A DNA stretch of 8,613 nt, taken from a virus (Duplodnaviria; Heunggongvirae; Uroviricota; Caudoviricetes). Under the pieces are notes generated by a model. That model did not search any database, was not told where the DNA came from, and saw nothing but the letters and a program-made list of their open reading frames with translations. Made by a program: the position numbers and the translations under genes. Location: the IMG/VR virus record IMGVR_UViG_2563366802_000009; one strand, 5' to 3'. Positions 1-8,140 of this stretch are shown here, one piece after another. Within the stretch, counting starts at the first letter, position 1, and every line of letters begins with the position of its first letter.

Positions 1-561
1 CAGCACGCGGGCCAGCAGCCCCGGTCCTGCGATACCCCGCTCGATGGGCCGTGAAGGCGCGGGGGCCTGCACGATGGCATCGCACTGAGTACAGGCATGC
101 TTTTCACGTACAGTCCGGATAACCCGGAAGGCGCTGCGCATCAGCTCCAGCTGTTCGGCGGCATCCTCACCCAGATAGCTCAGCGAGCCTCCACATTCCG
201 GGCAGCATGACGCTGCCGGCAGCAGCCGTTTTTCATCGCGGGGGAGTGATTCGGGGAACGGTTTGCGGGTGCGGGTTTGACGCAGCGGGCGCTGCACGGC
301 CGGGTCGTCAACCCGACCGGTAAGGGTATCACTTTCTTTCTGAAGTGCCTTCAGGTCAGCTTCCATCTGTGCGATACGACGGGAGACTTTTTCCGAGCGG
401 CTGCCGAAGTTCATCCGGCGCAGCTTATCCAGCTGTGCCTGCAGATGGTCTATTTCGCGTTCACGCTCGTTCAGCTTTTCCTGCAGGGCACGGTTCAGCG
501 CCTCCTGTTCGGCAAGGAGACGTTTCAGTGCATTGATATCGTCAGGAAGTGAGCTGCTCAT
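1..561 (-). CDS. tnpC: IS66-family transposase TnpC, N-terminal 187 codons only (3' end lies beyond window start)
   Basis: Reverse-strand ATG at 561 opens a frame translating MSSSLPDDINALKRLLAEQEALNRALQEKLNEREREIDHLQAQLDKLRRMNFGSRSEK..., through a CxxC..CxxC segment, open to position 1. Absent from the ORF track because no stop lies inside the window. Recognised from memory as the leucine-zipper N-terminus of IS66 TnpC. Confidence 0.8.
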   Translation of the reverse strand, partial: MSSSLPDDINALKRLLAEQEALNRALQEKLNEREREIDHLQAQLDKLRRMNFGSRSEKVSRRIAQMEADLKALQKESDTLTGRVDDPAVQRPLRQTRTRKPFPESLPRDEKRLLPAASCCPECGGSLSYLGEDAAEQLELMRSAFRVIRTVREKHACTQCDAIVQAPAPSRPIERGIAGPGLLARVL

Positions 562-609
562 ACCGGGTATATTACCAGGCTCATTCAGCGTCGACCAGGA
601 TAAAGAGGC

Positions 610-957
610 TTACAACATAGTCAGGGACGTAAGCAGTCTTTTAGGCTGCCGCCAGTCGATACCTTCAAGGAGCATCGCCAGCTGTGCCGGTGTGAGGAAC
701 ACTTTGCCATCCCGGGCTGACGGCCAGGCGAAGCGGCCGCGCTCCAGCCGTTTGGTCAGCAGACACAGTCCATCGCCGGTAGACCAGAGGAGCTTTACCT
801 GACTGCCATTACGCCCACGGAAGATAAAAACGTGACCTGACATCGGATCGTCTTTCAGCGTCGTCTGCACCTTTGCCGCCAGGCCGTTGAAGCCGTTTCT
901 CATATCGGTGATGCCAGCGACCAGCCAGATCTTTGTCCCTGATGGTAATGGGATCAA
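610..957 (-). CDS. tnpB: IS66-family accessory protein TnpB (Orf2)
   Basis: 115 aa ORF (MIPLPSGTKIWLVAGITDMRNGFNGLAAKV...) typical of IS66 Orf2; sits between tnpA and tnpC. Confidence 0.9.
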   Translation of the reverse strand: MIPLPSGTKIWLVAGITDMRNGFNGLAAKVQTTLKDDPMSGHVFIFRGRNGSQVKLLWSTGDGLCLLTKRLERGRFAWPSARDGKVFLTPAQLAMLLEGIDWRQPKRLLTSLTML

Positions 958-1358
958 CGTTTGAGCTCCCGTATCAGCAGGTTCAGGATATTTTCGCTGA
1001 TGGCACCATTCAGACGGAGTGATCCGTGCCGGAACGTCACTTCACAGCTGATATTGAGTGATTCAGGTGTCGCAGCAGCTACAGGTTGTGACCGGGGGGA
1101 GGTTGTAGGGACAACATCTTCGGCATCAAGAGTTATCGGGAGCAGCTCAGGCACGTTGTTTTCTGTTGTTGAAGGAGGACGTAGTTTTCCTTCGCGCCAG
1201 TACTGGCGCCACTTGAACAGCAAATTATCGTTGATCCCATGCTCACGAGCGAGTTGCGCTACGGAGATCTCTGGTCGATGCGAGAGTTCAACCATTTTGA
1301 TTTTGAACTCAACGGGATAATTAGGGCTTTTTTTACGCACTGCGGTTAATGATTTCAT
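954..1358 (-). CDS. tnpA: IS66-family TnpA (Orf1), helix-turn-helix protein
   Basis: 134 aa ORF (MKSLTAVRKKSPNYPVEFKIKMVELSHRPEISVAQLAREHGINDNLLFKWRQ...); its stop overlaps the tnpB start by 4 bp, as is usual in IS66 elements. Confidence 0.9.
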   Translation of the reverse strand: MKSLTAVRKKSPNYPVEFKIKMVELSHRPEISVAQLAREHGINDNLLFKWRQYWREGKLRPPSTTENNVPELLPITLDAEDVVPTTSPRSQPVAAATPESLNISCEVTFRHGSLRLNGAISENILNLLIRELKR

Positions 1359-1409
1359 GGATTGCGTCCACCATATTTGGTGTCCACTATTCTCTCAGGA
1401 ATTTCAGGA

Positions 1410-1439
1410 TCTGCCAGACGGTGCTGAGACGACGCTTAC
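1410..1439. repeat. Terminal inverted repeat of the IS66-family element (the one end visible in this window)
   Basis: Plus strand CTGCCAGACGGTGCTGAGACGACGCTTAC; reverse complement begins GTAAGCG. The partner repeat lies outside the window, so the exact boundary is +/- a few bp. Confidence 0.5.
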
Positions 1440-1468
1440 GTATCAGCTGAATTTTATAACCCATATAC

Positions 1469-1494
1469 GGGCGCCAGAAATGGCGCCTTTTTTA
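1469..1494 (+). terminator. Rho-independent terminator-like hairpin directly upstream of lom
   Basis: GGCGCCA-GAAA-TGGCGCC stem-loop (1470..1487) followed by TTTTTTATT. Functional only on the plus strand. It sits 30 bp from the IS end. Confidence 0.5.
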
Positions 1495-1517
1495 TTGCAG
1501 AAAAGCGAGAGGTAATT

Positions 1518-2117
1518 ATGCGTAAAGTTTGTGCAGCCATTTTGTCCGCAGCCATCTGTCTGGCCGTATCCGGTGCGCCTGCATGGGCGTCTGAGCAGCA
1601 GGCCACACTGAGCGCAGGGTATCTTCATGCCCGTACGAACGCTCCCGGCAGCGAAAATCTGAACGGGATTAACGTGAAATACCGTTATGAATTTACGGAC
1701 ACGCTGGGGCTGGTGACGTCATTCAGTTATGCCAATGCCAAAGATGAGCAAAAAACGCATTACAGCGATACCCGCTGGCATGAAGATTCAGTGCGTAACC
1801 GCTGGTTCAGCATGATGGCGGGGCCATCTGTACGCGTGAATGAATGGTTCAGTGCTTATGCGATGGCAGGTGTGGCTTACAGCCGTGTTTCGACGTTCTC
1901 CGGGGATTATCTCCGCGTAACTGACAACAAGGGGAAAACGCACGATGTGCTGACCGGAAGTGATGACGATCGCCACAGCAACACGTCTCTGGCGTGGGGA
2001 GCTAGCGTGCAGTTTAACCCGACCGAATCCGTGGCCATTGATATTGCTTATGAAGGCTCCGGCAGTGGCGACTGGCGCACTGACGGTTTCATCGTGGGTG
2101 TCGGTTATAAATTCTGA
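1518..2117 (+). CDS. lom: Lom outer-membrane protein (Ail/Lom/PagC/OmpX family beta-barrel), a lambdoid moron
   Basis: 199 aa with a signal peptide (MRKVCAAILSAAICLAVSGAPAWA) and C-terminal ...YEGSGSGDWRTDGFIVGVGYKF, near-identical to phage lambda Lom as recalled. GAGAGG Shine-Dalgarno 5 nt upstream of the ATG. Confidence 0.9.
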   Translation: MRKVCAAILSAAICLAVSGAPAWASEQQATLSAGYLHARTNAPGSENLNGINVKYRYEFTDTLGLVTSFSYANAKDEQKTHYSDTRWHEDSVRNRWFSMMAGPSVRVNEWFSAYAMAGVAYSRVSTFSGDYLRVTDNKGKTHDVLTGSDDDRHSNTSLAWGASVQFNPTESVAIDIAYEGSGSGDWRTDGFIVGVGYKF

Positions 2118-2142
2118 TTAGCCAGGTAACACAGTGTTATGA

Positions 2143-2170
2143 CAGCCCGCCGGTTCAGGCGGGCTTTTTT
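2143..2170 (+). terminator. Rho-independent terminator downstream of lom
   Basis: AGCCCGCC-GGTTCA-GGCGGGCT hairpin followed by TTTTTT, 26 bp after the lom stop and 12 bp before the stf start. Confidence 0.6.
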
Positions 2171-2181
2171 GTGGAGTGGAT

Positions 2182-4554
2182 ATGGCAGCAGTAAAAATCT
2201 CAGGTGTGCTGAAAGATGGTGCGGGAAAACCAATACAGAACTGCACTATTCAACTGAAGGCAAAGCGTAACAGCACCACGGTACTGGTGAACACGGTGGC
2301 CTCTGAAAATCCGGATGAAGCCGGGCGTTACAGCATGGATGTTGAGTATGGCCAGTACAGCGTCATCCTGCTGGTTGAAGGTTTTCCGCCTTCACATGCC
2401 GGGACCATTACCGTCTATGAAGGTTCCAGACCAGGTACGCTGAATGATTTTCTTGGTGCCATGACGGAGGATGATGCCCGTCCGGAGGCACTGCGCCGTT
2501 TTGAACTGATGGTGGAAGAAGCAGCACGCAACGCTGAAGCCGCCTCTCAGAGCGCAGCGGCGGCAAAGAAATCCGAAACTGCAGCGGCATCATCGAAGAA
2601 CGCGGCGAAAACCTCAGAAACGAATGCAGCTAATAGTGCACAGGCGGCAGCGACCTCACAGACTGCATCAGCAAACTCCGCGACAGCAGCCAAAAAATCA
2701 GAAACCAACGCGAAAAACAGCGAGACAGCCGCAAAGACGAGCGAAACCAACGCAAAGTCCAGCCAGACGGCAGCGAAAACCAGCGAAACGAATGCCAAAG
2801 CCAGTGAAACTGCGGCAAAAAACAGCCAGGTTGCAGCAGCCCAAAGCGAGAGCGCGGCAGCCGGTTCTGCGACTTCAGCAGCTGGATCAGCAACTGCTGC
2901 GGCTAACAGCCAGAAAGCTGCGAAGACGAGTGAAACTAACGCAAAGTCCAGCCAGACGGCAGCGAAGACCAGCGAAACGAATGCCAAAGCCAGCGAAACT
3001 GCGGCGAAAAACAGCCAGGATGCAGCAGCCCAAAGCGAGAGTGCCGCAGCTGGTTCTGCAAGTGCGGCGGCTTCTTCTGCCACTGCATCAGCCAACAGTC
3101 AAAAAGCAGCAAAAACCAGTGAAACCAACACAAAGGCGAGCGAGACTGCGGCGACTAACTCGGCGAAAGCATCCGCTGCAAGCCAGATGGCTGCAAAAGC
3201 AAGTGAAGACGCAGCCAGAGAGTATGCAAGCCAGGCAGCAGAGCCGTATAAATATGTCTTACAGCCACTGCCTGATGTGTGGATACCGTTTAATGACTCG
3301 ATGGATATGATTACAGGATTTGGCCCGGGATATAAAAAAATAACAGTGCGCGATGATGTGGTCACTATACCATCCGACAAAATTGTCCCGTTTTCCCGCG
3401 CGAGTTCCGCGACCTATATCAATAAGTCCGGCGCTCTTACCATTGCAGAAATTAATGAGCCACGTTTTGAAAAAGAAGGGCTGTTAATTGAAGGGCAGAG
3501 AACAAATTACTTCACAAACTCAAACGCTCCGGAATTGTGGAATAAAAATCCAGGCCTGAAGATAAGCGAGACAAAAACCGATTCCAGGGGTTTTAAATAT
3601 GCAACGTTTACCCCAGAAAAATATTTAGATAGTTCTGGCTCATATGGAATTATATCAGGGGCAGCAGCAAATAAGATAGCGGTAGTCAAAAATGATGCAG
3701 TTACAATATCCTTTAGAGCAAAAGGGGATAATGTAAGATTTGCGGCTAGATTTGATAAAGGGGATTCGCCAGTTGCTGTAGCTGCCATTTTTATTGATAG
3801 CGCCACACTAGATACATTCACGTCTGGAGCAGATGCGTCTAATATTGCTGTGAAAAATGTTGTTCGTGACGGTGAGTGGGTTGCTGTAGAGGCTGTTTAT
3901 AAAGTAACAGACGACTCTACATATATTAACGGCGCCATTCTGATGTCAAACAAACTGGGTGCTAATTTTGATAAGACTAGTTTTATGGATGTAACCACCC
4001 CTCAAATAGAGCTAGGTTCTTGCTTATCATCATTTATTGTCACACCAGGTGTTCCTGCGACAAGGGCGAGTGATATGGTTATTTTTTCAACCAGAAATAA
4101 CATAAGTTCTGTCCCTTTAAGCTGTCTTGTTGAAATACATAAAAATTGGGACTCTACGCCAAATCAGTCCCCACGAATTTTAACCACTATTGGCGTGGCG
4201 ACTAATGATGAACAACTGGTATTTGCTTTCAGGACGCCTACAAGTCCGGATGTAGAACCTTTACCTTATGTTCAGTTTGGAGTGAGATCTGCATATCTTA
4301 GTCCATTTGTGAAGGCCGGGCGCAAAATGATTGCTGGTTTTGTCTGTAATAGCTCGACTGAATTTCGTTGCAGTTGTAATAGTTACCTGTCACCTGTTCA
4401 GACTTCGTCATGGAAGAATACCGGAGCTGCACATGAAATACGTATTGGGGGAACTTCTGCTGGAGGAGAACGTCACTTGTTTGGTCACGTTCGTAACCTG
4501 AGAATATGGCATAAAGAATTAACTGATGCGCAAATGGGGGAGAGTATTAAATGA
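2182..4554 (+). CDS. stf: Side tail fibre protein (Stf-like), mosaic: lambda-like N-terminus, repeat shaft, divergent low-GC C-terminal module
   Basis: N-terminus MAAVKISGVLKDGAGKPIQNCTIQLKAKRNSTTVLVNTVASENPDEAGRYSMDVEYGQYSVILLVEGFPPSHAGTITVYEGSRPGTLNDFLGAMTEDDARPEALRR matches lambda Stf from memory. Ala/Ser/Thr/Lys-rich 14-residue repeats follow (KTSETNAKSSQTAA...). The C-terminal ~520 aa is AT-rich and ends ...GHVRNLRIWHKELTDAQMGE, which resembles the C-terminal strand motif of concanavalin-A-like/LamG jelly-roll domains (inference). Start placed at ATG 2182 (GGAG 5 nt upstream) rather than the track's GTG at 2176. Confidence 0.85.
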   Translation: MAAVKISGVLKDGAGKPIQNCTIQLKAKRNSTTVLVNTVASENPDEAGRYSMDVEYGQYSVILLVEGFPPSHAGTITVYEGSRPGTLNDFLGAMTEDDARPEALRRFELMVEEAARNAEAASQSAAAAKKSETAAASSKNAAKTSETNAANSAQAAATSQTASANSATAAKKSETNAKNSETAAKTSETNAKSSQTAAKTSETNAKASETAAKNSQVAAAQSESAAAGSATSAAGSATAAANSQKAAKTSETNAKSSQTAAKTSETNAKASETAAKNSQDAAAQSESAAAGSASAAASSATASANSQKAAKTSETNTKASETAATNSAKASAASQMAAKASEDAAREYASQAAEPYKYVLQPLPDVWIPFNDSMDMITGFGPGYKKITVRDDVVTIPSDKIVPFSRASSATYINKSGALTIAEINEPRFEKEGLLIEGQRTNYFTNSNAPELWNKNPGLKISETKTDSRGFKYATFTPEKYLDSSGSYGIISGAAANKIAVVKNDAVTISFRAKGDNVRFAARFDKGDSPVAVAAIFIDSATLDTFTSGADASNIAVKNVVRDGEWVAVEAVYKVTDDSTYINGAILMSNKLGANFDKTSFMDVTTPQIELGSCLSSFIVTPGVPATRASDMVIFSTRNNISSVPLSCLVEIHKNWDSTPNQSPRILTTIGVATNDEQLVFAFRTPTSPDVEPLPYVQFGVRSAYLSPFVKAGRKMIAGFVCNSSTEFRCSCNSYLSPVQTSSWKNTGAAHEIRIGGTSAGGERHLFGHVRNLRIWHKELTDAQMGESIK
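2731..3059 (+). repeat. Two ~140 bp direct repeats (2731..2870 and 2920..3059) with a 189 bp period inside the stf shaft region
   Basis: By eye the copies differ at about 10 of 140 positions. The 189 bp offset is 63 codons, so both are in frame, each encoding ...KTSETNAKSSQTAAKTSETNAKASETAAKNSQ(V/D)AAAQSESAAAGSA. Confidence 0.8.
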
Positions 4555-4832
4555 AAGATTTAACACTCAAATTTGCAGACAGGGCCGACTTTTCGGCCTT
4601 TATGGAGAGCATTGGCTATTATGATGACGAGTCGATGCAGGATGATATTCTTATTGACGTGATAGGTAATGTGTACAAAGAAACCGGAGAACTGACTGAA
4701 GATGGCGAACCGGTATGTGTTAAGGAAGACGGATATTTTGTAAACGTGCGCATCATTAATGATGCAAAAAAATCGTCAATATTTGATGAATACGCGGTTG
4801 TAGTTGAACATCAACTTCGTGGCTGGATGTGA
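4551..4832 (+). CDS. Hypothetical small acidic protein (93 aa), translationally coupled to stf
   Basis: Start ATG overlaps the stf stop (ATGA at 4551..4554), with GGGGGAG upstream. About 21 Asp/Glu versus 9 Lys/Arg, net charge roughly -12. AT-rich like the stf 3' half. No family recognised. Confidence 0.55.
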   Translation: MKDLTLKFADRADFSAFMESIGYYDDESMQDDILIDVIGNVYKETGELTEDGEPVCVKEDGYFVNVRIINDAKKSSIFDEYAVVVEHQLRGWM

Positions 4833-4841
4833 GGGAGACAA

Positions 4842-5546
4842 ATGGCTACATCGACAGTAATTCCGGGAGACATCACCACGCTGAAGGGAGATGTCAGTAA
4901 AGCGAAGGAAGATATTTCCTCAATTAACGGTAAAGTGTCAATGCTTCAGACTGATATGACCAGTGCAAAGCAGGATATCAGCTCCAGATACACAAAAACT
5001 GAAGTTGATAATAAGCTGAAAAACAAAGTAGAAGTGAACGATCTGGAAAGTGGTCGTTATGGCGGAGATTTTTATCCACTGACAGGTCGTGAAGCGTTTT
5101 ATTTATGGGGATTGGGCACAACTACAGCGGCGGCAAATCTTTATCTTAATCCTGACCCTGCAATTTCGTCTGTGCTGCGGTCAACATCGTCTATCCGCTA
5201 TAAACATTCAGTAGAGACGATAGATTCAGAGCACGCCGATCTCATTTTCAGGATGCGCCCTGTATGGTACAGGTCGCAATGCGAAAATGACAGGCGTGAC
5301 TGGGGATTCTACGGATTGATTGCCGAGGAAGTAGGAGAAATTGCCCCTCAGTTTGTACACTGGCGACCAGCTAACGAGAATGATGCTCCTGAAGCTATTT
5401 CCAGCAATGGACTTGTTGCCGAAGGTGTAATGTACGAATGTCTGGTTGTTCCACTGATTCACCATATCCAGAAACTGACTGAAAGAGTTGATGAACTTGA
5501 GTCAGAATTAAAGTTGTTATTAACTTCCCGAAGCGATATTAGATAA
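4842..5546 (+). CDS. Small tail-fibre-like protein (234 aa) with a C-terminal peptidase S74-like intramolecular chaperone domain
   Basis: GAGGGAG Shine-Dalgarno 6 nt upstream. N-terminus carries two ~20-residue repeats (LKGDVSKAKEDISSINGKVS / LQTDMTSAKQDISSRYTKTE). The C-terminal half matches the S74 chaperone consensus as recalled: SSIRYK (Ser...Lys at i and i+5), LIFRMRPVWYR, GFYGLIAEEVGEIAPQFV, then YECLVVPLIHHIQKLTERVDELESEL. Confidence 0.7.
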   Translation: MATSTVIPGDITTLKGDVSKAKEDISSINGKVSMLQTDMTSAKQDISSRYTKTEVDNKLKNKVEVNDLESGRYGGDFYPLTGREAFYLWGLGTTTAAANLYLNPDPAISSVLRSTSSIRYKHSVETIDSEHADLIFRMRPVWYRSQCENDRRDWGFYGLIAEEVGEIAPQFVHWRPANENDAPEAISSNGLVAEGVMYECLVVPLIHHIQKLTERVDELESELKLLLTSRSDIR

Positions 5547-5556
5547 AGGAGGAGTA

Positions 5557-5850
5557 ATGGATATAACACCTTTTCTTCATGCGCTTTGTGCTGTGGCTGC
5601 GCAGACACTGGTTGGTCTTTTTACCGGAAACTGGGCTTATGGGGCGATAGCTGGTTGTACGTTCTTCATTGCGCGTGAACACACCCAGGCAGAATATCGC
5701 TGGATTGAAATGTTCGGGCATGGCAAGCGGATTAACATGCCGTGGTGGGGCGGTTTTGATCCGCGTGTTTGGGATGTGGCAAGCCTGATGGATTTTGCTG
5801 TGCCGGTGGTGGCGTGTCTGCTGATCTGGCTGTTGGTTAATCGTGGGTGA
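5557..5850 (+). CDS. Hypothetical small membrane protein (97 aa, 2-3 predicted transmembrane segments)
   Basis: Strong Shine-Dalgarno (AAGGAGGAG) 2-4 nt upstream of the ATG. Hydrophobic stretches at residues ~3-39 and ~71-94 flank a Trp/Gly/Arg-rich loop (RWIEMFGHGKRINMPWWGGFDPRVW). More GC-rich than the two preceding genes. No family recognised. Confidence 0.55.
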   Translation: MDITPFLHALCAVAAQTLVGLFTGNWAYGAIAGCTFFIAREHTQAEYRWIEMFGHGKRINMPWWGGFDPRVWDVASLMDFAVPVVACLLIWLLVNRG

Positions 5851-5860
5851 AAAAAGGTGA

Positions 5861-5980
5861 GCTGTATATGCAACGGAGGAAGAAACCCCGTTGCTGGAAG
5901 CCAGGAAAAAGTATCGGGTGTTGCTGAACCGTGTTGATACGTCAACTGCACAGGATATTGAATGGCCAGCACTGCCGTAG
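5861..5980 (+). pseudogene. tfa: 3' remnant (~40 codons) of a tail fibre assembly gene tfa; no start codon, 5' part missing
   Basis: Frame open 5861..5977 encodes [39 protein letters not shown], matching the conserved C-terminus of lambda-type Tfa (...[31 protein letters not shown]..., recalled). An in-frame TGA lies at 5858..5860. Confidence 0.7.
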
Positions 5981-6077
5981 GGTAAAACATATAAATTCTA
6001 TAATTAGATGTATCTTTCCATTTACGGCAAGGAAGGGGGCTTGGAAGACGTAAAGCATCTCACACCGAGATTATTTT

Positions 6078-6668
6078 TTATATGTCAGGTGTCTGAAGTT
6101 TTGCTTTGGCTCTTAAAATGGTTTGCCGCGAGGTTTTGAATTCCCGGGCAATGGCACTTATACTTACACCTGACTTAATCCGTTCGAATACCACCTGTTT
6201 CTGTTCTTCATTTAACACAGGTGGTCGACCAAAACGTTTCCCTGCGCCCCGGGCTCTTACTATCCCGGAATGAGTGCGTTCAAGTAAAAGGTCTCGTTCA
6301 AATTCAGCGACTGCTGAAATTACTTGCATCATCATTTTTCCTGTTGGACTGGTCAGGTCAATGCCCCCCAATGCTAAGCAATGCACTCTGATACCTGTTT
6401 CGGTCAGTTGTTCCACTGTTTTCCTGATATCCATTGCATTACAACCAAGGCGATCCAATTTTGTCACAATCAATTGATCACCACATTTCAGGCGAGCAAG
6501 CAACCGGTTAAAACCAGGACGCTCACTGGTTGCTGCTGAGCCGCTAATGTGTTCTTCGATTATTTGCTGAGGTTTGATTTTAAAACCTGCACTTTCGATT
6601 TCCCGGCGTTGATTTTCGGTGGTCTGATCCAGCGTTGATATCCGACAGTAAGCAAAAATTCGAGACAT
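6078..6668 (-). CDS. pinR: Serine recombinase (resolvase/invertase family), positional equivalent of Rac PinR
   Basis: 196 aa; N-terminus [20 protein letters not shown] carries the catalytic-serine motif of small serine recombinases, and the C-terminal region reads as a helix-turn-helix ([23 protein letters not shown]). Convergent with the tail-fibre operon, as pin is in Rac/Qin/e14 (recalled). Confidence 0.85.
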
Positions 6669-6984
6669 AGTGAGACTCTATACGAAATTGGTGTTCATAT
6701 CATAATGCATCTCAGAAAATAATTTTGATTATTTTTGTGCATATTTGTATGTACACGTTCGAAAATAAACGAATGCGTATGCAACCCCGTAATTTTGGTG
6801 AGACCCAAAATCGATTTTGTGAAAAATGGCTTTAACTCGGTTTGTTTTTCGAGTTCCGGGCGGACTCAAGGAAGAAGAATAGTGTTGCGTGTTATTTTAA
6901 CCAGATTTCAAGTTGTTTGGTCGTGGAAAAGTGGAGCAAAATGTTGTTAAAGTGGAAAAATGATAAAAAAGTAAGTTTATTATA

Positions 6985-7218
6985 TTACATTTTACCATTT
7001 AAATTTTGGTTGTCTTTAAGAACTGATATCGCTGTTTGTAATAATTCTTTGTTATCCAGCCATGATTTTTTCTTTATGTTTCCTTCAATGTAATCAAGCA
7101 ATGTTCTGGTATTGATAGGTCTTCCCTGTTTTGCTACTTCCACTACAGCATCCGCTAGGATAATTCTTACTTCAGGAAGCTGCGCAGGGAACCACTTTAG
7201 GGTGTCTTTTGATTTCAT
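6985..7218 (-). CDS. ynaE: YnaE/YdfK-family prophage cold-shock-induced protein (77 aa)
   Basis: MKSKDTLKWFPAQLPEVRIILADAVVEVAKQGRPINTRTLLDYIEGNIKKKSWLDNKELLQTAISVLKDNQNLNGKM matches E. coli YnaE/YdfK from memory. Start placed at ATG 7218 (AAGGAA 7 nt upstream) rather than the track's ATG at 7251, which would add 11 residues. Confidence 0.8.
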   Translation of the reverse strand: MKSKDTLKWFPAQLPEVRIILADAVVEVAKQGRPINTRTLLDYIEGNIKKKSWLDNKELLQTAISVLKDNQNLNGKM

Positions 7219-7450
7219 GAAGATATTCCTTAAAATATTATTGATTTTCATTGCGATATTGTATGTCTGATTCAGGATATGTTGACTTATACATCGGTTT
7301 TGTCTGGGTTATTGGATATGCCAATCCCTAATTTTATTAGGGCATGACTAAAAATGCTGAATATGATAAGGAGAGATGTGATTATCAGTATGCTGTTCAT
7401 ATAACCTCGAATTAGTAATGTGTTATATATGATATAGTTGACAATTTTTA
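7219..7450 (-). promoter_or_regulatory. Probable promoter and long 5' leader of ynaE (very AT-rich)
   Basis: No ORF here; composition is strongly AT-rich with TTGACA/TTGTCA and TATA-like hexamers. Long leaders are known for cold-shock genes. No individual -35/-10 pair could be assigned. Confidence 0.3.
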
Positions 7451-7790
7451 TCTTGGGTGTTCTTAAAGTTCGTAGATAAACATTGTCGTTTCAGGTATAC
7501 AGGAATGCTAACAGGTGGCAGCAAAAATCAGGCGGTTTATGGCGCAAGCTGAAGCGGCAACTGCAAACTATCTTATGCAGAGACTCTACACGGATTGGGT
7601 TTAAAAGTATACATAGATAACAGTTTTTATCTGAAGAAGAAAAATATCAAGGTGATATAGCCTATATGCCTATGATGCGGAGGAATGAATGTGATGGGAG
7701 TGATGTATCTGAATAGTTGAAAAACCGCAGTCACGTCGTATGCAAGAACGTGCTGCGGTTGGTTTGACTTTGATTGAGACGTTTTGGAAT

Positions 7791-7850
7791 TTTTTTTTGT
7801 GGCAAAAATGGGGCAAAACGCTGCAAAAGGGGCAAAAAAGGGGCAAAAAA
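7791..7850. repeat. T9 tract followed by five helically phased G(G)GCAAAA(A) A-tract repeats (predicted intrinsically curved DNA)
   Basis: TTTTTTTTT at 7791..7799, then GCAAAA beginning at 7802, 7813, 7823, 7832 and 7843 (spacings 11, 10, 9, 11 bp). Confidence 0.7.
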
Positions 7851-8140
7851 AGAGTGGATTATCGTAGTTTATTGTTCTCGCTGATGATGTTTAACACATT
7901 GAAAAATAAGTAAAACACTTATGAGTCAGATAGTTGTGATTTTTGCCCTTACTTGTTCAGGTTGTATTGTTCTTTCTTACTAATTTCTTGATTTTGCGAC
8001 ATTTAAAAGCGACTCAATTCGTTATATGGCATCAGAAGAGTATGCGTCATGCCGGAACGCCCAGCATAAGAAATCTGATATAAAAAACTGTGGCGTGTAT
8101 GGTACGGATTAGAGGGGAAAATGTCAGCACATTTGCGAAA

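Follow-up and report, generated by a model that had tools for sequence, protein, structure and literature searches.

The locus raises a simple question: what is a small membrane protein doing at the 3′ end of a side tail fibre operon? The window analysed here, the whole 8,613-nucleotide (nt) stretch of IMG/VR record IMGVR_UViG_2563366802_000009 (Caudoviricetes), corresponds to the distal end of a defective Escherichia coli prophage of the lambdoid (Rac/Qin) type, and the last fibre gene on its + strand is followed at 5557-5850 by a gene for a 97-amino-acid (aa) membrane protein. An earlier, sequence-only reading of this DNA had proposed that the gene was acquired separately and that it may serve lysogenic conversion or superinfection exclusion. 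The survey described below places it in a family whose members in phages are the first gene after the receptor-binding-protein (RBP) unit, often overlapping the stop codon of that unit.

The open reading frame (ORF), taken from the ORF list and assigned to PHROG 1443, runs intact on the + strand from an ATG at 5557 to a TGA at 5848-5850, and its product is identical to WP_000355603.1, a protein of the BL21/REL606-type prophage annotated 'hypothetical protein'. The Shine-Dalgarno sequence AAGGAGGAG (5546-5554) lies 2-4 nt 5′ of the ATG, right behind the TAA (5544-5546) of the upstream 234-aa gene, bearing out the near-consensus ribosome-binding site read from the letters alone. The GC content of the gene is 52.4% (51% at third codon positions, GC3) versus 40.4% in the 93-aa gene and 44.0% in the 234-aa gene, the two genes upstream from which it had been said to differ. 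Pairwise ratios of non-synonymous to synonymous substitution (dN/dS), calculated against 40 distinct E. coli-type alleles, were mostly 0.1-0.25; values below 1 indicate that the protein itself, and not the DNA alone, is under selection. These data establish a real gene under purifying selection, with the antisense ORF at 5637-5990 arising as its by-product. The gene is also the final intact one on the + strand, being followed only by a remnant of a tail fibre assembly (Tfa) gene and by the convergent, opposite-strand pin gene, in agreement with its proposed place as last gene of the side tail fibre operon.

By hydropathy, three segments are hydrophobic (about residues 4-23, 26-39 and 74-95), and AlphaFold2, run with an alignment of 58 sequences, returned a very confident model (mean pLDDT 95.2) with helices at 4-23, 26-53 and 74-96. 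The small membrane protein with two or three transmembrane (TM) segments that had been suggested is thus one with three hydrophobic helices. Helix 1 (residues 4-23; + strand, 5566-5625) is hydrophobic and carries the near-invariant His8 as well as Gln16, the latter invariant in A1, the alignment of closer homologues. Helix 2 (residues 26-53; + strand, 5632-5715) has its membrane part at residues 26-39 and continues into the conserved polar motif A-R40-E41-H-T-Q44-A-E46-Y-R48-W-I. The loop that follows (residues 54-73; + strand, 5716-5775) has the sequence GHGKRINMPWWGGFDPRVWD and the family pattern G-x-G-K-R-x-N-M-P-W-W-G-G-F-D-x-R-x-W, and is indeed the Trp/Gly/Arg-rich loop of the sequence-only reading. 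Helix 3 (residues 74-96; + strand, 5776-5844) is the most hydrophobic and contains the conserved Ser76, Asp79 and Pro83. A cytoplasmic-membrane protein in which helices 1 and 2 form a hairpin and a polar Trp-rich loop joins that hairpin to helix 3 is well supported by these results. From the helix boundaries of the model (an antiparallel hairpin in which residue i pairs with about 49-i), His8, Glu41 and Asp79 would lie at about equal membrane depth; situated on one side of the membrane beside the Trp-rich loop, they appear in the model to resemble a binding or catalytic pocket. A cleavable signal peptide, quoted from SignalP in the phage 21 record, was rejected because helix 1 is conserved at His8 and at further residues and is packed with confidence in the model. 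Foldseek searches of PDB and BFVD gave no match at E<0.7; what came back was limited to generic helical bundles and to membrane subunits with three helices.

The match to PHROG 1443, a family of unknown function, extended over residues 1-96 on profile positions 1-96 of 97 (E=2.7e-58). Homologues formed 579 clusters at 90% identity in a word-indexed search and 441 representatives at 50% identity in an exhaustive profile search. The best 150 of the 441 representatives were 63-146 aa long and bore no sign of fusion to another domain, and it is well supported that the family always consists of stand-alone proteins some 90-140 aa in length. Membership was defined from alignments A1 and A3 as a stand-alone protein of ~90-140 aa with three helices, His8, Arg40-Glu41, Gln44-Ala45-Glu46, Trp72 and Pro83; the window protein carries every one of these residues and the three helices. 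Family sequences were found in alpha-, beta-, gamma- and deltaproteobacteria, the phage and prophage members being assigned to gamma-, beta- and deltaproteobacterial genomes or hosts. For the alphaproteobacterial representatives, the contigs obtained were all short. At 56-80% identity, D2, H8, Q16, G29, R40, E41, Q44-W49, G56, R58, P62, W64-F67, W72 and P83 were invariant, and H8, R40, E41, Q44, A45, E46, W72 and P83 were still at least 90% conserved at 28-56% identity. Judged from these alignments, conservation is unusually strong for a small membrane protein. Pfam gave no match to the window protein at E<=0.1, including none to a GtrA, glycosyltransferase or acyltransferase domain, and the matches of 97 family members at E<=10 were scattered and at chance level (a weak PhoR N-terminal TM hairpin in 7). 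NCBIfam and PDB sequence searches returned no match, the anti-phage defence models of PADLOC-DB none at E<=1, and literature searches by accession, PHROG number and keyword turned up no functional study. The gene already has catalogue entries, one as a hypothetical protein and one as a PHROG member, and no characterised relative of it was found.

The genomic position of the family in phages followed a common order. An RBP unit was taken to be a fibre or spike together with its chaperone, which can have a gene to itself or be an intramolecular S74/G2 domain. In phage 21 and in the 108-kb phage PhiR41_1, a gene for a 92-aa protein and then the family gene come after the side tail fibre gene. The family gene of P22-like JEP4 overlaps the tailspike gene by 4 nt and is followed by int, a locus which we take to be the position of gtrABC on the P22 map. 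It follows an S74 tail fibre in a Leclercia P2/HP1-like prophage, a GDSL tailspike in an E. coli prophage (where a lysis cassette of two holins, endolysin and a DUF2514 protein comes next), and a GpJ-like protein and a 72-aa protein in a Comamonas prophage (where three small unannotated genes come next). The order in phiHAP-1 is fibre, fibre-assembly gene, family gene and sheath gene; in the 154-kb phage Carin-5 the family gene stands between an S74 tailspike and a Peptidase_G2 fibre; in the P22-like Aeromonas phage 4_4512 it lies inside the structural operon; and in the 236-kb jumbo Aeromonas phage ACP1 a beta-helix tailspike gene is directly 3′ of it. The proteins of the Aeromonas, Halomonas and Cobetia phages and of JEP4 are full-length members by the family hidden Markov model. 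On the 5′ side in ACP1, a 1125-aa protein holds an intein with Hint and LAGLIDADG domains (30-3407 of the examined stretch).

Counts over larger sets agreed with these examples. Among 80 E. coli-type viral contigs, the family gene was preceded by the 234-aa S74 fibre in 34, by a 346-aa S74 fibre in 24, by the 92-aa protein in 21 and by an insertion sequence (IS) in 1. Among 39 distinct upstream proteins from diverse viral contigs, most matched PHROGs that are tail fibre or tail spike families; Pfam found Peptidase_S74 in 14 and pectate-lyase-like domains in 5, with endosialidase and GDSL domains in others. Across 55 distinct phage junctions the family gene overlapped the upstream gene in 19, followed it by 0-30 nt in 11 and by 31-100 nt in another 11. 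Many viral contigs stop within a few hundred bases 3′ of the gene. HC6-like coliphages have a frameshifted, stop-interrupted copy directly behind an 859-aa tailspike (Tail_spike_N plus Peptidase_S74) at ~3960-4220 of the HC6 stretch, and such a copy, unannotated and apparently decaying, is also present in the related ~48-kb phages 6947, ST1UNAM, ZCEC08, PBM-3 and HC8A.

Such a position could be explained if the protein were a membrane-anchored factor for the folding, maturation or attachment of fibres and spikes, for instance one handling the cleaved S74 fragment. In many phages unrelated to one another the gene shows translational coupling to RBP genes, and an S74/G2 RBP is directly upstream in the window, in 58 of the 80 E. 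coli-type contigs, in 14 of the 39 diverse cases and in Carin-5, HC6 and the Leclercia and Desulfovibrio prophages. The frequent S74 neighbour is, however, accounted for most simply by position: an RBP that carries its chaperone within itself can do without a further gene for one and therefore directly adjoins the family gene, whereas a chaperone encoded separately takes that neighbouring place instead. Near-identical proteins moreover follow RBPs without S74, namely the phage 21 side tail fibre with its 92-aa protein, the JEP4 tailspike, the GDSL spike, the GpJ-like protein and the phiHAP-1 fibre with its Tfa. These two points weakened the candidate of a specific functional tie to S74 domains. 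Like the Tfa, gp38 and DUF4376 chaperones, the family gene is found directly 3′ of fibre genes and is often translationally coupled to them. Those chaperones are soluble and matched to the fibre tip, whereas the family protein is integral to the membrane, comes behind the chaperone where there is one and is near-identical behind unrelated RBPs. We know of no integral-membrane fibre chaperone, and homologues about 57% identical are encoded at non-phage chromosomal loci with no RBP nearby. An RBP helper is accordingly considered improbable.

How the gene came to this position was examined by comparison with phage 21. In phages the family gene behaves as a mosaic module of one gene. Homology at 95.6% DNA identity extends over 5545-5926 (+ strand) and comprises the Shine-Dalgarno sequence, which is kept along with the gene from 5545, the gene itself and 76 nt downstream. 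The flanking fibre genes are only 40-70% identical to those of phage 21 at the protein level. Together with the deviating GC content, these boundaries support separate acquisition, as the sequence-only reading had supposed. Part of the Tfa remnant (5870-5980) is co-inherited with the gene in phage 21, the homology reaching 5926, which hints at insertion of the module by recombination within a tfa gene.

A simple consensus scan of the + strand found no sigma-70-like promoter between the terminator-like hairpin 3′ of lom (+ strand, 2144-2165, from the promoter and terminator scan) and 5557, and none was found, nor any terminator behind the 97-aa gene, in the scan of 2176-6135; unusual promoters inside the upstream gene could escape so simple a scan, and 10 nt separate the gene from the upstream stop. 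The absence of own signals and the overlapping starts elsewhere point to co-transcription with the fibre genes and so to late expression. On this sequence evidence the 97-aa protein is probably made late with the tail fibres and not as an autonomous, lysogen-expressed moron. In the present IS-interrupted prophage the gene may be silent.

These results bear directly on the role first proposed, a classical moron expressed from the repressed prophage and protecting the lysogen by superinfection exclusion or lysogenic conversion, through a block of DNA entry at the inner membrane (in the manner of HK97 gp15, T4 Imm and P22 SieA) or a change in a surface receptor. As in lambdoid morons, one additional gene is present whose GC content is foreign and whose mosaic boundaries are sharp, here at the end of the fibre operon and near the end of the prophage; its place between the tailspike gene and int in JEP4 and the many viral contigs that end a few hundred bases behind it fit the same picture. 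Lambdoid morons are, however, built as promoter, gene and terminator between conserved genes, and the 97-aa gene has neither room for nor a match to a promoter or terminator of its own. Its start codon overlaps the upstream late gene at 19 of 55 junctions (30 of 55 being overlapping or within 30 nt), and the family also occupies mid-operon sites and structural operons of large and jumbo phages, probably virulent, of which ACP1 and the 154-kb phage are unlikely to lysogenise. Exclusion proteins are usually narrow in distribution and fast-evolving, unlike a family conserved across bacterial classes and present on chromosomes. The survey of homologues and neighbourhoods showed a widespread family lying behind the fibre and spike genes of many unrelated phages. 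The earlier proposal is partly supported, as regards the small membrane protein, its place at the end of the operon and its separate acquisition, but the mid-operon and jumbo-phage sites do not resemble those of a lysogen-expressed moron, and the conversion or exclusion role fits poorly. We regard that role as unlikely, although it is close in kind to the one favoured below.

Individual systems resemble the family in part. Cor (T1, phi80, N15) and Llp (T5) mask FhuA and resemble the family protein in being small envelope proteins encoded beside receptor-binding genes and travelling with them. They are lipoproteins, whereas the protein here is polytopic and has no lipobox: the pattern [LVI][ASTVI][GAS]C is absent, residues 8-11 being H-A-L-C with Leu preceding Cys11, and Cys11 is present in only 44 of 99 homologues. 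It also accompanies many RBP types and not one receptor specificity. HK97 gp15, T4 Imm and P22 SieA are likewise small phage inner-membrane proteins, so that by analogy a block of DNA entry is conceivable here as well; gp15 is encoded by a moron among the tail genes of HK97. Neither sequence nor profile searches detected a similarity of these three to the 97-aa protein. They are narrowly distributed, and those of temperate phages are expressed in lysogens; the 97-aa family differs in its span from alpha- to deltaproteobacterial sequences, its chromosomal members and its coupling to late genes.

The serotype-conversion genes gtrABC and oac of the P22-like tailspike/att locus, together with Iap, a small polymerase inhibitor of phage D3, offer a third comparison, since the JEP4 gene stands in what is presumably the corresponding locus and many of the RBPs preceding the family gene carry glycan-degrading or glycan-binding domains. 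The 97-aa protein differs in having no GtrA, glycosyltransferase or acyltransferase domain, and the family gene differs in lying on the same strand as the spike gene and overlapping it, not being separately promoted. The epsilon15-type layout was rejected, as the conversion gene of that phage is on the opposite strand with a terminator intervening. Small envelope proteins beside RBP genes are already known, and the 97-aa family deviates from them in expression logic, distribution and conservation.

Members outside phages provided a second source of evidence. Several Aeromonas species encode, at a conserved non-phage locus, a homologue that shares 56-57% identity with the protein of E. coli phages; the order there is DNA polymerase II, tRNA_edit, pirin, family gene, a convergent PA4780-type RIO1-like kinase and two MsbB/LpxM-type acyltransferases. 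At the Aeromonas rivipollensis locus (6990-11645 of the examined stretch), ORFs neighbouring the gene recur in A. aquatica, A. media and A. taiwanensis. At eight sphingomonad loci the family gene is paired with a PhyH-like dioxygenase, divergently in seven and with one of the two downstream in the eighth, and at four other sphingomonad loci it is 3′ of ligA. The dioxygenase, of the Fe(II)/2-oxoglutarate kind, is ~370-390 aa long and conserved, has an N-terminal hydrophobic stretch and corresponds to no NCBIfam model. The existence of chromosomal copies indicates that the function of the protein does not require a phage RBP.

This raises the alternative of a housekeeping-type membrane protein (for metal or ion binding, as a transport subunit or as a mini-enzyme) whose cellular role is unconnected with adsorption and that phages carry as an auxiliary gene or as a recombination anchor flanking RBP cassettes. 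The conserved synteny in Aeromonas and sphingomonads places the gene beside two kinds of Fe(II) cupin-type protein, pirin and the PhyH-like dioxygenase, and the invariant His/Glu/Gln/Glu set is compatible with a metal site. Among lambdoid phages the DNA of the gene is far more conserved than that of its neighbours, but the dN/dS below 1 shows selection on the protein and not only on the DNA. The alternative also leaves unexplained why at least 10 phage lineages place the gene precisely behind the RBP unit. A supply of iron to tail fibres, considered on account of the His/Glu site and the pirin and PhyH neighbours, was dropped when HxH iron motifs of the T4 gp37 type proved not to be in excess in the upstream RBPs (4 observed versus 5.9 expected). 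A housekeeping function recruited in this way is judged rather unlikely.

Size and hydrophobicity also suggested a holin, an antiholin or another regulator of lysis timing. Three hydrophobic helices in a protein of holin-like size, the gene directly upstream of two holins, endolysin and the DUF2514 protein in one E. coli prophage, the three small unannotated genes that come after it in Comamonas, and the location of the holin gene behind the fibre gene in T7-like phages all point in this direction. The protein lacks, however, a holin-type charged C-terminal tail, ending in LLVNRG directly behind helix 3, and its strong sequence conservation is atypical of holins. In lambdoid and P22-like phages the lysis cassette is complete and adjoins Q, at a distance from the fibre genes, a weak Pfam holin match was obtained for only 1 of 97 family members, and homologues are found on chromosomes outside prophages. 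No endolysin gene was found in the window by the ORF list and Pfam. A role in lysis is very improbable.

The interpretation that we find most plausible, though only tentatively, is that of an inner-membrane protein that binds or modifies a conserved component of the envelope and so interferes with phage adsorption or entry. In this model, His8, Arg40/Glu41, Gln44, Glu46, Ser76 and Asp79 would lie at similar depth on one face of the membrane and, with the Trp-rich loop, would form a ligand-binding or catalytic pocket. Its ligand would be an envelope component common to Proteobacteria, such as a lipid-linked glycan carrier or another inner-membrane constituent. Once that component was occupied or modified, an adsorbing or injecting phage would meet an altered envelope, and the benefit would be that competitors are excluded or that progeny are not wasted on a dying cell. 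Homologues on chromosomes would carry out this chemistry on the envelope independently of any phage.

A more specific and more doubtful proposal is that the family represents an unrecognised miniature intramembrane enzyme or ligand-binding protein, recruited as a general, late-expressed envelope-interference module beside the glycan-targeting RBPs of phages of many morphotypes. A His-Glu-Asp/Gln-Glu site in the membrane interface would then act on a carrier or lipid common to Proteobacteria. Such a protein would be distinct from all described exclusion, conversion and lysis proteins.

Several observations weigh against an envelope-interference role. Late expression allows little time for remodelling the outer surface, and the pseudogene in HC6-like coliphages implies that the family gene is dispensable there. 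The topology is in conflict: residues 40-73 average ~5.3 Lys/Arg versus ~0.7 in the C-terminal tail, which by the positive-inside rule would make the conserved loop cytoplasmic, while the TMHMM result quoted in the phage 21 record has two TM segments with N-in/C-in orientation and a periplasmic loop. The C-terminal tails tend to be slightly basic, which tempers the positive-inside call of a cytoplasmic loop. The chromosomal neighbours are too heterogeneous to name a function and are weakly informative. Lipid A, considered as a target on account of the MsbB/LpxM-type neighbours in Aeromonas, was judged unlikely since sphingomonads, which lack classical lipopolysaccharide, keep the gene.

The remainder of the window is consistent with an eroded prophage end. 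IS66-family genes (- strand, 610-1358) precede lom (1518-2117), and in strain 3359 the IS66-family genes corresponding to window positions 1-1358 are placed between J and lom. The operon opens with the side tail fibre gene (+ strand, 2176-4554; 792 aa, phage_tail_N domain), in which 21-nt repeats (7 aa, SETNAK/AAKTSE-like) lie inside a 189-nt duplication at 2597-3154. This gene is intact in the window and split by IS5 in strain 3359, so at this site the window and its closest genome are not the same, and IS elements are eroding the prophage. The segment 5400-6000 (601 bp) around the 97-aa gene recurs at 100% identity in strains 3359 and ET210 of E. coli; its identity to the Qin-type prophage that BL21 and REL606 carry is 99.7%. 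At least 80% of it is present in 548 of 5426 complete E. coli genomes (about 10%), including BL21 and REL606, whereas E. coli K-12 is not known to carry the gene.

Next in the operon is the gene for a 93-aa acidic protein of PHROG 1361 (+ strand, 4551-4832), 3′ of the side tail fibre gene. The PHROG 1361 protein has no Pfam or NCBIfam match. It always comes 3′ of a side tail fibre gene of this kind, as seen in phage 21, in PhiR41_1 and in 21 of the 80 viral contigs, and is a candidate for a fibre chaperone that stands in for Tfa and represents an undescribed family. The 234-aa short fibre gene (+ strand, 4842-5546) encodes a C-terminal Peptidase_S74 intramolecular-chaperone domain at residues 116-172. 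For a fibre, 234 aa is unusually short. Residues up to ~33 match the N-terminal end of the 346-aa S74 fibre family PHROG 4563, and the remainder matches the last ~240 residues of the 1385-aa family PHROG 3299. With the S74 domain beginning at residue 116, self-cleavage would leave a mature product of only ~115 aa. Behind the 97-aa gene lie the C-terminal 36 codons of the Tfa gene (+ strand, 5870-5980), the pin-type serine invertase gene convergent with the operon (- strand, 6078-6668), a ydfK-like ORF (- strand, 6985-7251) and, as the final feature listed in the window, uspF. The region 6700-8100 is AT-rich (31-40% GC), with the ydfK-like ORF as its sole convincing gene, and an Rfam scan of the whole window gave no match to an RNA family.

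Genes adjacent to RBPs often decide which phage infects which host. If the 97-aa protein alters the envelope or blocks entry, the family would rank among the determinants of phage host range and of prophage-mediated resistance as one that is widespread yet has been overlooked. Such a role would also be relevant to phage therapy cocktails and to the engineering of RBP cassettes, which would carry the gene along. Phage 21, JEP4 and the E. coli B strains in which the gene is present already offer genetic systems for its study. A miniature enzyme of the membrane, should the protein prove to be one, would interest membrane biochemists as well.

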